Source: Mobula hypostoma (lineage: Eukaryota). From it: a stretch of 64,000 nucleotides of DNA. A model generated the notes under the pieces. The model saw nothing but the letters and a program-made list of their open reading frames with translations. It was not told the origin of the DNA and searched no databases. A program made the position numbers and the translations under genes. The stretch covers positions 35,094,001 to 35,158,000 of the forward strand of contig NC_086108.1 of the NCBI RefSeq assembly GCF_963921235.1, in the 5' to 3' direction. Within the stretch, counting starts at the first letter, position 1. The number at the start of each line of letters is the position of its first letter. Below, in pieces: positions 794-60,758 of this stretch.

Positions 794-2042
794 GAATAGA
801 AGTAAATGCTTCCACTTCCTGAGGTCAACAAAACCAAAGGCCATAATACAAGAGAATACAATAAATCCAAATGGAAAACCTTATCCAGGGAGGGATTAGA
901 AAGTAATAATTAATTTCAAAGGAGTGAGTGAGTGAGGCAAATAGTAAAGATACAATTACATGGAGATGTGATAATTTCATGAGAGCAATATATATATAAA
1001 TGTACATATATATCTACATACACAAGGATCCTGATTGTTTGAAGATGAAAAAAAGTGAAGAAAGTTCATATAAGAAGAAAATGACTCTCAGGGTTATATA
1101 TGGTGACATATATGTACTTTCATAATAAACTTACTTTGAGCTTTATAGTGCATAAATGTTGACATGGAACAGTTGGGCTGAATGTCCTATTTCACTGCTG
1201 TACCTGTTAAGAAAATCTATTCACTTTGGACAATACTTGGATTGTGCAAAGAAAACACAATCTGTTCGATATGTTGGTGACTAGATGTCACCACCCCTGT
1301 AGCAGTCAGTGGCCGTGAAGACTGCTTTGGCAGTAGGTGTGGCACCCTGCACACTATTGGTAATGTATAAGGGAGGAAGCTGGCTGACTGATTTTTGTAA
1401 AGGCGTTAGTACTTTTCACAACATTATTTAAAGGCACACAACCAGATTTGTTTCAAGCTTCTCACCACCCCTGCCATTTTGGGGGCTAAGACCTAATGGT
1501 TACATTTCCTAAGCAGTTTGTGGGGCCTCCTCAACTTCTAAATATGTTGCTGCTTTGTGACAGCACTCCAGCCTACACTGGGTGATTATACATTTATTAT
1601 AATCTTAAACCGTTTAATGTCTGCAACCTATTTCAATGTAATCACTACCACCTCCATACACTCCACTGTGATTAGCAGATTGCAGGTTGTCATGACTTAT
1701 CTTTCTCTGCAGGGTCATGGGCCATAATTTACAAATCATGAGTCTGTAAACAGTATTGCAGCTTCTAGTAAAAGACATATTGCATTGTTTCCTTGGAGCT
1801 ACGCAAAAGTATGAATGATTACTGTTAGGGTTATTAGGTTGCTTTCACTTTGATAAGACGAGCGGGCTCTCTTTGTAGCAGAAATGGAATAAAAATAGTG
1901 CTATCTCTGAATGTTAAGTGCTTGAGGATCTGCTTCTATGCTATATGCCTTAATATCAAGTCTAGCACTACATAATTATAAACCAAAATTAAGTCATTCC
2001 TCGTTAACATATTCCTTATGTTAAAAACTAGAGTTCTTAATC

Positions 2043-45045: not shown

Positions 45046-45760
45046 TGACGGGGGCTGGGAACTGGAGTGAAGACAGATGGTAAAAAAGTGAAGATAGTGT
45101 GCAGTCAGATTGTCAGGAAGGGCAGGCAGGTGATGGGACTTAGTTGCAGCCAACAGGCTGAGTATCAAATCATTAGGGATGCAGAATCAGAAAGGATAGC
45201 AAATACGGTGCTCAAGGTGTTGTATCTAAATGCACGTAGTATAAGAAATAAAGTGGATGATCTTGTTTCAATATTACAGATTACCAAACATGATTTTGTG
45301 GCTATCACTGAATCGTGGCTGAAGGATGGTTGTAGTTGAGAGCTGAATGTCCAAGGCTACACGTTATATCGGAGGGACAGGAAGGTAGGCAGAGGGGCTG
45401 GTGTGGCTCTACCGGTAAAGAATGTCATCAAATCAGTAGAAGGATGTGACATAGGATTGGAGGATGTTTTAATCCTTGTGGGTTGAGTTCAGAAACTGCA
45501 AGGGTAAAAGGACGTTGATGGCAGTTATATACAGGCCTCCCAACAGTGGCTGGGAGGTGGACCACAGGTTACAAAAGGAAACAGAAAAGGCAAGTCAAAA
45601 GGGCAATGTTATGGTAGTCATGGGAGATTTTAACATGCAGGTTGATTGGGAAAATCTGGTTGGTAATGGATCTCAAGTTTATTGAATGCCTAAGAGATAG
45701 CTTTTGAGAGCAGTTTGTCATTGAGCCTACTAGGGGATCAGCTATACTTGATTAGGTGTT

Positions 45761-46353
45761 ACAGCAAATGTGTTTGTTTGCTGTTTTCATGTTTGCTGTT
45801 GTGGGCTGGGGCAGCAGGCTGAGGGTAGCAGACACCAACAAAATCAACAAACTCATTCGTAAGGCCAGTGATGTTGTGGGGATGGAACTGGACTCTCTGA
45901 CAGTGGTGTCTGAAAAGAGGATGCTGTCTAAGTTGCATGCCATCTTGGACAATGTCCCCCATCCACTACATAATGTACTGGGTGGGCACAGGAGTACATT
46001 CAGCCAGAGACTCATTCCACCGAGATGCAGCACTGAGCATCATAGGAAGTCATTCCTGCCTGTGGCCATCAAACTTTACAACTCCTCCCTTGGAGGGTCA
46101 GACACCCTGAGCCAATAGGCTGGTCCTGGACTTATTTCATAATTTACTGGCATAATTTACATATTACTATTTAACTATTGATTACTATTTTCTATTACTA
46201 TTCTATTACTAGTTATTACTTCTATGACTATTACTATTTACTAATAGTAATATTACTATTACTATTTCTATTACTATTTATTATTTATGGTGCAACTGTA
46301 ACGAAAACCAATTTCCCCCGGGATCAATAAAGTGTGACTATGACTATGACTAT
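45761..46353 (+). mobile_element. Young Rex1/Babar 3' fragment nested in CR1
   Basis: Same family as 8781-9603; expanded TATTAC-type repeats at 46162-46280; (ATGACT)n tail. Confidence 0.92.
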
Positions 46354-46747
46354 GTAATGAACCAGAGGCAATTAGGGAGCTTAAGGTAAAAGAACGCTGA
46401 GAAACCAGCGATCACAATATGATTGTGTTCAATTTGAAATTTGGTAGGGAGAAAGTCAAGTCTGATGTAGCAGTATTTCAGTGGAGTAAAGGAAATTACA
46501 GTGGTATGAGAGAGGAGTTGGCCAATGTAAATTGGAAGGAGCTGCTGACAGGAATGTTAGCAGAACAGCAATGGCGGGCGTTTCTGGGAAAAATGAGGAA
46601 GGTGCAGGGCATGTGCATTCCAAAAATGAAGAAATACTCAAATGGTAAAATAGTACAACCATTTGACAAGGGAAGTCAAAGCTATTGTAAAAGCAAAAGA
46701 AAGGGCATACAGTAAAACAAAGTAAAAATTAGTGGGAATATAGAGGA

Positions 46748-47244
46748 ATTCTTCTGAGGGGGGGGGCTGTAGTCGAGTGGTCCGTGACTTGGGCCGGCTC
46801 CCCCACTGGACTTAGTCTGGTGAGGAGGGTGTGAGGACACCCAGCAGGACTAAAAAAAAGCAAGACCTGACAAAGGATGGATGAGTTCCTTGTGAGTCAA
46901 CGGCCATCTTCAGTGGAAAAGATTAAAGCCTCACTGCGTATCTACGAATTGTATGCTATGCACCTGGTTAGAAGAGACATGATGAACTTGGGTGCTGCAT
47001 CGTGTGCCTGGACCTGCCCAAGGCCTCCGCCTAGGAAAGGCCGAACTTGAAGAAGCGGCCACGGCTGGAGGCCGACACGGCCTCGGGCTCAAGTTCAGCG
47101 GGGCGGCGGCAGGTGGTGCCAAGGCAGCCAGCGAGAACAAACTGGAGGAGAGGCTGTACTCGGTGCTGTCACAAGATCGAAGAAGATGGAGGTGCATAGC
47201 TGCCAACCCTGGATTTGGGACGGCACCCACTGACTGACTGACTG
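46748..47244 (+). mobile_element. Non-autonomous RTE-like element carrying a captured gene fragment
   Basis: TSD AGAGGA at 46742-46747 and 47245-47250; RTE-like C-terminus (QDRRRWR) and (ACTG)n tail. Confidence 0.8.
46992..47169 (+). pseudogene. CYHR1: Captured, circularly permuted fragment of cysteine and histidine-rich protein 1 (CYHR1/ZFTRAF1)
   Basis: 46993-47031 reads [13 protein letters not shown]; 47041-47168 reads PNLKKRPRLE...(frameshift)...[10 protein letters not shown]; as I recall CYHR1 reads PKKRLR...[25 protein letters not shown]. Confidence 0.8.
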
Positions 47245-48502
47245 AGAGGATTGGGAAGTTTTTGAAAACCTACAGAGAGCAACTGAAAACATCATTAGAA
47301 AGGAAAAGATGAAATATGAAAGCAAGTGAGCAAACAATATCAAAGTGGATAGTAAAAATTTTTTCAAGTATGTTAAAAATAAAAGAGAAATGAATGTGGA
47401 TATAGGACTGTGAGAAAATGAGGCAGGAGAAATAAAAACTGGGGACAGGGAGATGGCTGATGAAATGAGTTTTTTGCGTCAGTCTTCACAGTAGAAGATA
47501 CTAGTACTATGCCCGTGTGAAGGAAGAGAGGTAGAGAAGGCGCTCAAAAAGCTGAAAGGCCTAACGGAACATAAGTCACCTGGACCAGAGGAACTGCACC
47601 CTAGGGTTCTGAAAGAAGTGGCATTACAGACTGTGGTGGCATTAGAAATGATCTTTCAAAAATTATTGGACTCTGGCATGCTGCCAGAGGTCTGGAAAAT
47701 TGCAAATGTTACTCCACTCTTTAAGAAAGGAGGAAGGCAGCAGAAAGGAAATTATAGACCAGTTAGCCTGACCTCAGTGGTTGGGAAGATGTTAGAGTCA
47801 ATTGTTAAGGAGATGGAGTACTTGGTGACACAGGACAAGATAGTACAAGATAGTACAAGTCAGAATGTTTTCCTTCAGGGAAAATTCTGCCTGACGAACC
47901 TGTTGGAATTCTTTGAGGAGATTACAAGTATGATAGATAAAGGGGATGCAGTGGATATTGTATATTTGGACTTTCAGAAGGCATTTGACAAGGTGCCACA
48001 CATGAGGCTGCTTACAAAGTCAAGAGCCCATGGTATTACAGGAAAGTTACTAACATGGTTACAGCATTGGCTGATTGGTAGGAGGCAGCGAGTGGGAATA
48101 AAAGTGATCCTTTTCTGGTTGGCTGCCAGTGACTAGTGGTGTTCCACAGGGGCCAGTGTTGGGACTACTTCTTTTTATGCTGTGTATAAGTAGTTTAGAT
48201 GATGGAATAGATGGCTTTGTTGTCAAGTTTGCAGATGATACTAAGATTGGTGGAGGGGTAGGTAGTGTTGAGGAAACAGGTAGCATGCAGAAGGACTTAG
48301 ACAGATTAGGAGAATGGGCAAGAAAGTGGCAAATGAAATACAATGTTGGAAAATGCATGGTCATACACTTTGGTAATAGAAATAAATGTGTGGACTATTT
48401 TCTAAATGGGGAGAATATCCAAAAATCTGAGATGCAGAGGGACTTGGGAGTCCTTGTGCAGAACATCCTAAAGGTTAACTTGCAGGTAGAGTCGGTGGTG
48501 AG

Positions 48503-59278: not shown

Positions 59279-60758
59279 CATTGAGGTCATAAAATGGATT
59301 CAGCAGTGGCTGGATGGGAGACGCCAGAGAGTGGTGGTGGATAACTGTTTGTCAGATTGGAGGTCGGTGACTAGTGGTGTGTCTCAGGGATCTATATTGG
59401 GTCCAATGTTATTTGTCATATACATTAATGATCTGGATGATGGGGTGGTAAACTGGATGAGTAAGTATGCAGATGGTACTAAGATACGTGGAGTTGTGGA
59501 CAATGAAGTAGGTTTTCAAAGCTTGCAGAGAGATTTAGGCCAGTTAGAAGAGTGGTCTGAAAGATGGCAGATGGAGTTTACTGCTGATAAATGTGAGGTT
59601 TACATTTTGGTAGGACTAATCAAAATAGGACATACATGGTAAATGGTAGGGCATTGAAGAATGCAGTAGAGCAGAGGGATCTAGGAATAATGGTGCATAG
59701 TTCCCTGAAGGTGGAATCTCATGTGGCTAGGGTGGTGAAGAAAGCTTTTGGTACGCTGGCCTTTATAAATCAGAGCATTGAGTATAGGAGTTGGGATGTA
59801 ATGTTGAAATTGTACAAGGCATTGGTGAGGCTAAATTTGGAGTATTGTGTACAGTTTTGGTCACCGAATTATAGGAAAGATGTCAACAAAATATAGAGAG
59901 TACAGAGAAGATTTACTAGAATGTTACCTGGGATTCATCACCTAAGTTACAGAGAAAGGTTGAACAAGTTGGGTCTTTATTCTTTGGAACATAGAAGGTT
60001 GAGGGGGGACTTGATAGAGGTATTTAAAATTATGAGGGGGATATTTTATACTTTATACTTTATTGTCGCCAAACAATTGGTACTAGAATGTACAATCATC
60101 ACAGCGATATTTTATTCTGCGCTTCCCACTCCCTGGATTACAAATATTAAATGTTAAAAATACTAAAAATAGTTAAAATTAGTAAATATCAAAAAATTAA
60201 ATTATAAATTATAAATAGAAAATAGAAAAATGGAAAGTAAGGTAGTGCAAAAAAACCCGAGAGGCGGGTCCGGCTATTTGGAGGGTATGGCCCTGATCCG
60301 AGTCAGGATCCGTTCAGCAGTCTTATCACAGTTGGAAAGAAGCTGTTCCCAAATCTGGCCGTACGAGTCTTCAAGCTCCTGAGCCTTCTCCCGGAGGGAA
60401 GAAGATAGATAGAGTTGACGTGGATAGGCTTTTTCCATTGAGGGCGGGGGAGATTCAAACAAGAGGACATGAGTTGAGAGTTAAAGGGCAAAAGTTTAGG
60501 GGTAACTTGAGGGGGAACTTCTTTACTCAGAGAGTGGTAGCTGCGTGGAACGAGCTTCCAGCAGAAGTGGTAGAGGCAGGTTCGACTTTGTCATTTAAAG
60601 TTAAATTGGATAGATATATGAACAGGAAAGGAATGGAGGGTTATGAGGTGAGTGCAGGACGGTGTGACTAAGTGAGAGTAAGAGTTCGGCATGGACTAGA
60701 AGGGTCAAGATGGCCTGTTTCCGTGCTGTAATTGTTATATGGTTATTGTAATTGTTGT
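59279..60758 (+). mobile_element. CR1 LINE RT/3' fragment
   Basis: VTSGVSQGSILGP, LEYCVQFWSP, NFFTQRVV. Confidence 0.9.
60044..60403 (-). mobile_element. Rex1/Babar 3' fragment nested in CR1
   Basis: LPSGRRLRSLKTRTARFGNSFFPTVIRLLN; GATA duplication at 60040-60043 and 60404-60407; (TTTATAC) tail. Confidence 0.85.

Follow-up and report, generated by a model that had tools for sequence, protein, structure and literature searches.

The window analysed here is a stretch of 64,000 nucleotides from Mobula hypostoma (contig NC_086108.1, positions 35,094,001 to 35,158,000 of the forward strand). At positions 46748-47244 it carries an insert of 497 bases between 6-base direct repeats, and this insert is almost certainly a bipartite non-autonomous derivative of an RTE-type long interspersed nuclear element (LINE), made of an inverted-repeat head, the RTE 5' untranslated region (UTR), a permuted piece of exon 1 of the host gene ZFTRAF1 (CYHR1) and the RTE 3' end. 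The element around the insert, which its motifs suggest to be a CR1, has a frame that is continuous once the insert and one duplication are removed. An earlier note on this DNA, made from the letters alone, had described a 497-bp insert in a CR1 between 6-bp AGAGGA target duplications, and both the coordinates and the read-through of the frame agree with it. The parts of the insert are as follows.

46742..46747, + strand: left target-site duplication of 6 bp, a direct repeat in the host CR1-like element
46748..46761, + strand: non-aligning bases at the truncated 5' end (about 10, then part of a G run); the consensus alignment starts at 46762
46762..46797, + strand: what is left of arm 2 of the fold-back hairpin at the 5' end, carrying A-to-G changes relative to the RTE parent
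46798..46993, + strand: RTE 5' UTR and first codons, with the ATG at 46958-46960 and 7- and 10-base deletions relative to the parent
46994..47033, + strand: cargo piece A, the 40 bases at the downstream end of the ZFTRAF1 exon-1 segment that was captured; it stops 4 bases ahead of the splice donor
47034..47169, + strand: cargo piece B, the 138 bases at the upstream end of that segment, reduced to 136 in the window copy; its last base precedes piece A in the host
47170..47244, + strand: last 75 bases of the RTE, with the end of the reading frame, the stop at 47235-47237 and the (ACTG)n tail; here the family consensus has 0 substitutions relative to that of the RTE
47245..47250, + strand: right target-site duplication, a direct repeat

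The window copy is 5'-truncated: it lacks the first 92 bases of the family consensus, arm 1 and the loop of the hairpin are gone, and all 39 other scored family matches of a genome search with this insert begin at query base 15 or later. Its tail consists of four ACTG units at 47229-47244. Translation of piece A gives the 13-residue CYHR1-like stretch reported earlier, and in piece B the motif KKRPRLE and the ZFTRAF1-like stretch that follows it lie in two frames, owing to a one-base deletion. A cargo of 178 bp had been placed at 46992-47169; that length holds for the family consensus, but in the window copy the cargo starts at 46994 and has 176 bases.

The origin of the cargo was traced through the junction between its two halves. 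In host order this junction has a single match in the 3.48-Gb genome (at most 1 mismatch, control 0), on contig C5, and the match sits in exon 1 of a four-exon gene. The first exon, of about 500 bases, is a CpG island (GC 0.69, CpG observed/expected 0.95), and its frame of 109 codons ends at the GT donor. The last 60 residues of exon 1 gave 184 protein matches; among the 120 listed, the named ones are nearly all ZFTRAF1/CYHR1, the best-matching named relative being a sawfish protein that aligns in order to the four exons over about 158 kb (residues 1-407). A protein-atlas look-up of exon 1 returned RING-like leads only. The host ZFTRAF1 gene looks intact on this alignment; its first intron measures about 91 kb and its second about 63 kb. 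Host exon 1 aligns to the 178 bases of the family cargo, once rotated, with 3 substitutions, which bears out the CYHR1 origin that the earlier note had proposed. Searched against proteins, the frame of the element itself matched none of 1955 candidates. The cargo is entirely exonic and in sense orientation relative to the RTE transcript, and its inner junction is 4 bases away from reaching the true exon-1 splice donor. In the host, piece A begins directly after the final base of piece B, with no base lost or repeated, and this exact abutment argues for one cut in one molecule, captured as one unit.

In permuted order the same junction is abundant. A 28-letter pattern across it has 648 genome matches (311+337; reversed control 0), a lower bound on copy number, to be compared with the single host-order match; the swapped order of the halves thus stands. 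The host gene is colinear with the re-permuted cargo and is not itself permuted. A host locus lacking this colinearity or a host gene with the swapped order would, according to the earlier note, have refuted its claim, and a single genomic copy would have reduced it to a one-off chimera; none of these outcomes was found. That the family might be an assembly artefact or a one-off chimera is virtually excluded by copy number, the 648 matches being dispersed over many contigs, with differing flanks and target duplications.

A genome search with the insert returned 2322 candidates, and all 40 scored matches cover at least 458 of the 497 bases at 90% identity or more. We passed 77 loci, which had been selected for similarity to the window copy or through motifs and hence are not a random sample, through a junction script; four were dropped as repeats of the same place and one for want of a cargo or tail match, leaving 72. 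All three junctions are intact in 65 of these 72 copies, as expected if head, cargo and tail moved as the single unit that had been proposed. The 3' end is common to the copies and the 5' starts are staggered. Clean target duplications of 7-18 bp abut both ends at 9 of 33 loci, 8 have none and the remainder are doubtful. The full-length family consensus has 572 bases, is non-autonomous and encodes neither reverse transcriptase nor endonuclease; a motif near its 5' end has 110 genome matches. Outside CpG sites, divergence from the consensus is 3.5% for the element (28 copies) and 3.0% for its RTE (15 copies), similar values which indicate that the two were active together. At consensus positions 294 and 308, T is found in 19 and 14 of the 72 copies, respectively (T at 294 is the parent state), and such recurrent variants suggest subfamilies. 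Among sequencing runs, no RNA run was listed as containing the query words. In DNA or unclassified runs of five organisms, 0.21-0.52 of the query words are shared; since 60% of the query is common to the RTE, this does not show that the family is present there.

The 72 copies also settle the outer junctions. The earlier note had joined the cargo's two ends through a shared GT; however, piece A is preceded by C in 56 copies (T in 13, a gap in 3), and this base is C in the RTE parent. The 'shared GT' is therefore a CpG transition, and the outer junctions are blunt. Two further observations concern single loci. L134 (1483-1727) has a full hairpin head and a tail and has lost the cargo by internal deletion; its joint is unlike that of the family and it is therefore derived, not ancestral. 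L117 and L118, 101 kb apart on contig C12, are identical copies with identical flanks, and represent either a recent segmental duplication or an assembly duplicate.

Both ends of the element, that is its 5' region and its extreme 3' end with the tandem-repeat tail, derive from a LINE of the same genome. A tail pattern without the cargo end has 129 genome matches, and the 30 that were fetched are 3' ends of a longer element. Two near-complete copies of this parent span about 3.2 kb and others reach further 5', giving an autonomous length of about 3.3 kb. The parent has one long frame with endonuclease (PF03372) and reverse transcriptase (PF00078) domains, and its protein falls with one atlas cluster named craniofacial development protein 2. 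We presume it to be an RTE from its architecture, the atlas names and its C-terminal motifs. The small element has retained the ATG at which the parent's frame begins; in the parent this frame continues into the endonuclease domain. Outside the hairpin, the element's head differs from the parent consensus by 3 substitutions and the 7- and 10-base deletions, and its tail of 75 bases by 0 substitutions. The RTE ends claimed from the sequence are thus confirmed by alignment, and the head, which had been taken for anonymous non-coding DNA, is the RTE 5' UTR with the RTE start codon. A head ending in an RTE C-terminus was considered and dropped, the RTE copies showing that the head is the RTE 5' region. 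Rfam found neither a tRNA, 5S or 7SL head nor any family at gathering score in 6 long copies, and nothing at gathering score, ribozyme or rRNA head included, in 4 RTE 5' ends.

We then considered the 5' end of the element, which in a long copy forms a hairpin whose stability greatly exceeds that of shuffled sequences (z -6.2, 0/200). Arm 2 is the parent 5' UTR after a 98-base deletion and arm 1 is an inverted copy of arm 2; since arm 1 spans the joint of the deletion, the deletion preceded the fold-back. Compared with the parent consensus, arm 2 has 12 A-to-G changes and 1 A-to-T, and arm 1 has 3 A-to-G, 2 G-to-A and 1 T-to-G. On the sense strand, 15 of the 23 parental A in the two arms of the hairpin have become G; in the tail and the rest of the head the count is 0 of 75 (Fisher p 2.7e-12). 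These A-to-G counts are unaffected by a single CpG position that was assigned manually in the consensus. The cargo has no A-to-G change relative to the host segment. CpG decay gives C-to-T and G-to-A and is therefore not the source of these changes. Sense-strand A-to-G clusters restricted to duplex are a mark of ADAR editing, and 15 of the 53 pairs of the predicted hairpin are G-U. Sorted by eye, with small numbers, A was changed at 5 of 11 places after G and at 10 of 12 after other bases, the direction expected from PMC4365171, in which G is depleted one base upstream of ADAR-edited sites. The hairpin changes are very probably ADAR editing of RNA, fixed in a master copy. They are fixed in 30 copies selected on arm 1, and editing therefore preceded the amplification burst. 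All 6 pattern matches for an unedited arm 2 turned out to be arm 1 of ordinary copies, and no unedited ancestor was found by this pattern. Ongoing editing among copies was considered as well and is unsupported: A occurs at non-CpG edited positions in 9 of about 265 cases, near the 2.6% background. Many RTE copies (L078/L085, L086, L095, L098, L101, L104, L106, L080) carry an inverted 5' segment of twin-priming-like appearance, and such a tendency to 5' inversion could be the source of the fold-back head.

Any account of the cargo's entry has to yield exactly one unit, outer joints that are blunt and an inner joint placed 4 bases before the donor; moreover, neither RTE-cargo joint shows microhomology. 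We lean towards a birth of the element on RNA, in which the ends of broken RNAs were joined end to end. In a single event, a ZFTRAF1 exon-1 RNA with its 3' boundary at or near the splice donor would have been cut once in a single-stranded loop, and each of the 4 folds made predicts an unpaired opening point (0.98-1.0 for the first base of A). The starting RNA may have been a small circle, its donor joined to an AG inside the exon and two bases lost later, or a linear exon fragment whose pieces were kept within one particle; we give about equal weight to a circle nicked once and to two pieces of one linear molecule. An RtcB-type ligase, or else the RTE reverse transcriptase by jumping between templates, would then have joined the freed ends between broken 5' and 3' pieces of RTE RNA. 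Precedents exist: LINEs make double template jumps (PMC2104539), a non-LTR (long terminal repeat) reverse transcriptase jumps end to end (PMC8857657), and RtcB ligation has been described ahead of retrotransposition (PMC6789731). A single cut followed by end-to-end joining yields one unit and no more, permuted and bluntly joined. In a separate development, the 98-base deletion and then the fold-back duplication would have produced the long 5' hairpin, whose RNA would have been hyper-edited by ADAR before becoming the master copy.

The earlier note had left the choice between a small circle and a double template switch. Of these, a plain double switch is too few, since three joints and a single cut are needed. 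Independent template switches onto ZFTRAF1 mRNA, or a stepwise DNA rearrangement through a tandem duplication or a rolling-circle multimer, would fit the other rearrangements of the family (the 98-, 7- and 10-base deletions and the fold-back), and partial mRNAs have been captured by template switching in LTR elements (PMC5131818). By our reasoning, however, independent switches would achieve exact abutment about once per segment length, the joints lack the microsimilarity (median 6 bp) given in PMC5131818, and the single host-order match means that no tandem copy or retrocopy spanning the junction survives in the genome. We therefore hold this origin very unlikely.

In the most specific form of the RNA reading, the family would be the fossil of a ZFTRAF1 first-exon circular RNA (circRNA), 180 bases long and in frame, running from the donor to a cryptic AG, nicked once, stitched into RTE RNA and amplified several hundredfold, with the ADAR-edited fold-back as its GC-rich head. 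The distance from donor to AG is exactly 180 bases, in frame and stop-free; compared with such a join, the element has a gap of 2 bases. We put this forward as a tentative reading, less likely than not, and several observations weigh against it and against the birth on RNA in general. A clean donor-to-acceptor joint has 0 genome matches (at most 2 mismatches), and extra bases within 4 of the inner junction were found in none of the 72 copies. The candidate AG is preceded by G, a rare context for an acceptor, and a better one with a pyrimidine run lies 24 bases upstream; back-splicing of first exons is in any case seldom. No pairing is predicted between the segment's two ends (0.0 in 3 of 3 folds), and the closeness to the splice donor was noticed post hoc. 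Neither an unedited nor a cargo-less ancestor was found with the patterns used.

Moreover, the length and the CpG-island origin suit a DNA circle equally well. A one-nucleosome microDNA of about 180 bp from the germ-line ZFTRAF1 CpG island would have been broken once and patched into a double-strand break that deleted the RTE interior, the locus then acting as master. Germ-line circles, which centre on about 180 bp, arise via microhomology and are enriched at 5' regions (PMC10581685); here the cargo has 178 bases, its source is the CpG island described above, the two host ends share a 3-base run, and one cut of a circle also gives exactly one permuted unit. Set against these microDNA features, joining via the 3-base run would yield 180 bases and not 178, leaving the observed joint two bases short, and the deletion of about 3 kb of RTE must coincide with the insertion. 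An end 4 bases from the donor, the lack of intron and the sense orientation are left unexplained. A DNA circle is therefore possible but, in our view, unlikely.

Whichever way the element was born, we strongly infer that it spread by means of the RTE protein acting in trans, with the cargo as a passenger: the protein would bind the common 3' end and copy the element RNA into new sites by target-primed reverse transcription. As to persistence rather than origin, the cargo might have been retained for a function, its 93-codon frame with the basic KKRPR motif helping the RNA to meet the ribosome-bound RTE protein. Indeed, the consensus frame is open from the RTE start to the RTE stop, the raw non-synonymous/synonymous ratio is 0.68, and no family with this head but without the cargo came to light, all 8 matches of three head patterns (1+0+7), which cover part of the possible junctions, carrying the cargo. 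However, an open frame has a one-in-three prior chance, the ratio rises to 0.99 when recurrent changes are counted once (0.83-1.26 in the other two frames), a count under which no selection on the frame is supported across copies, and L134 does without the cargo, though through an internal deletion. Retention for function is thus improbable, and on these comparisons the cargo is most likely a passenger.

Among known systems, the closest are the bipartite non-autonomous RTE elements and the short interspersed nuclear elements (SINEs) mobilised by RTE, such as Bov-A, RTESINE1/2, WALLSI3 and RTE-N2_Lch (PMC5786205). Like them, the element has a 5' UTR part and the extreme 3' end with a microsatellite tail, is without reverse transcriptase or endonuclease and has reached a high copy number. 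It differs in carrying a host coding fragment between the LINE parts, and in having as its head an inverted duplicate of its own 5' UTR and not a small RNA. By its arrangement it is best described as a variant, not a plain member, of this group, set apart by the 178-base cargo and the inverted arm. It also falls outside the strict definition of a SINE, since its head can be aligned to the RTE and is not of tRNA, 5S or 7SL RNA origin. Bipartite derivatives of RTE elements are common, and in the texts of PMC5786205 and PMC7245038 consulted here host-derived parts are given only as non-coding RNA heads. The RTE-mobilised snoRTE/PlatSINE1, MeloSINE, BuceSINE and ManaSINE2 (PMC7245038, PMC4844689) likewise have host-derived or GC-rich parts, but what they have from the host is non-coding RNA placed at the 5' end, whereas the host part of the element is a coding piece. 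In PMC4844689 two bird SINEs have GC-rich heads of unknown origin; unlike those of BuceSINE and ManaSINE2, the GC-rich head of the element can be traced to a fold-back with A-to-G changes. Parent and offspring can thus be read as a record of RNA editing turned into heritable DNA, which supplies a testable idea for GC-rich SINE heads; if the tentative circRNA reading is true, an ADAR-edited fold-back would offer a general explanation of how other RTE-mobilised SINEs came by their GC-rich heads.

For the permuted order, the nearest parallel is that of the mouse circRFWD2 pseudogenes with MMERVK10C LTR sequence (PMC4897178), in which non-colinear host coding sequence was also multiplied with a retroelement. 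Those 33-42 copies of varying length contain an exon 6-exon 2 back-splice in an LTR context. In the element, the joint lies within one first exon and two bases off a splice joint, the cargo is one unit, the ends are non-LTR and the copies, at least 648, are uniform. Its order is non-colinear, as in a circRNA pseudogene, but its joint does not unite a splice donor with an acceptor, two bases being missing and the acceptor cryptic. How circular or broken RNAs enter genomes is called unresolved in PMC4897178, and the precise joints described here allow it to be tested. Tripartite LINE chimeras (PMC2104539) and U6/L1 chimeras (PMC6789731) resemble the element, as its birth is proposed here, in the direct fusion of unrelated RNAs, which takes place in the course of LINE reverse transcription or ahead of it. 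Most of them are single inserts whose 5' part is foreign, whereas the element kept both LINE ends and founded a family.

The third comparison is with gene capture. In Pack-type capture a partial host sequence lies inside an element and is able to move again as a non-autonomous unit. The element does move as a unit, but it has neither terminal inverted repeats nor LTRs nor microsimilarity at switch points. The earlier note had called it a Pack-like capture; this description suits a host fragment moved as a unit between element ends, but not as a general process, only one cargo having been found: four exclusion patterns, covering part of the possible junctions, revealed no other cargo in the same scaffold. 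LTR-mediated retrocopies (PMC5131818) are similar in that partial host sequence replaces the interior and can move again non-autonomously, and differ in their carrier, the element being non-LTR, with no microsimilarity at the joints, a permuted order and a single cargo. The element can thus be seen as a non-LTR counterpart of LTR gene capture and as a route by which coding sequence can become circularly permuted: a carrier of non-LTR type, thought to depend on its own 3' end, appears to have taken host coding RNA between its two ends and carried it, permuted, to hundreds of sites. We found no description of the family, of its combination of parts or of an editing-derived SINE head in the literature searched; Repbase, Dfam and the papers' supplements lay outside this search and could hold it. 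For the host, the hundreds of copies of first-exon sequence of ZFTRAF1, a regulatory gene, which are about 93-95% identical, may be a source of putative antisense or small RNAs against the gene, and they will confuse read mapping and circRNA calls at ZFTRAF1.

Several minor observations were made on the RTE and its relatives. Two RTE copies on contig C2 (L083 and L084, about 2.1 Mb apart) are 98% alike and carry the same 339-base repeat 60 bases before the tail junction; their 3' flanks differ, and the repeat also occurs in the window at 60049-60391 with 89% identity. This pair is apparently an RTE lineage mobilised together with a nested repeat. L113 and L114 (about 1500-1950, minus strand) belong to a second family of about 450 bases. 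Its 5' part is RTE-like and related to the parent at 81-82%, its middle is a different one, and it closes with a short stretch of ACTG type; among the 40 matches of one search, 12 resemble it. L089 (1500-2323) is an internally deleted RTE copy that joins the 5' part to the last 500 bases or so, an independent bipartite derivative. Finally, the CR1-like element of the window carries a second insertion at about 45760-46353, with a short tandem-repeat tail at its end.
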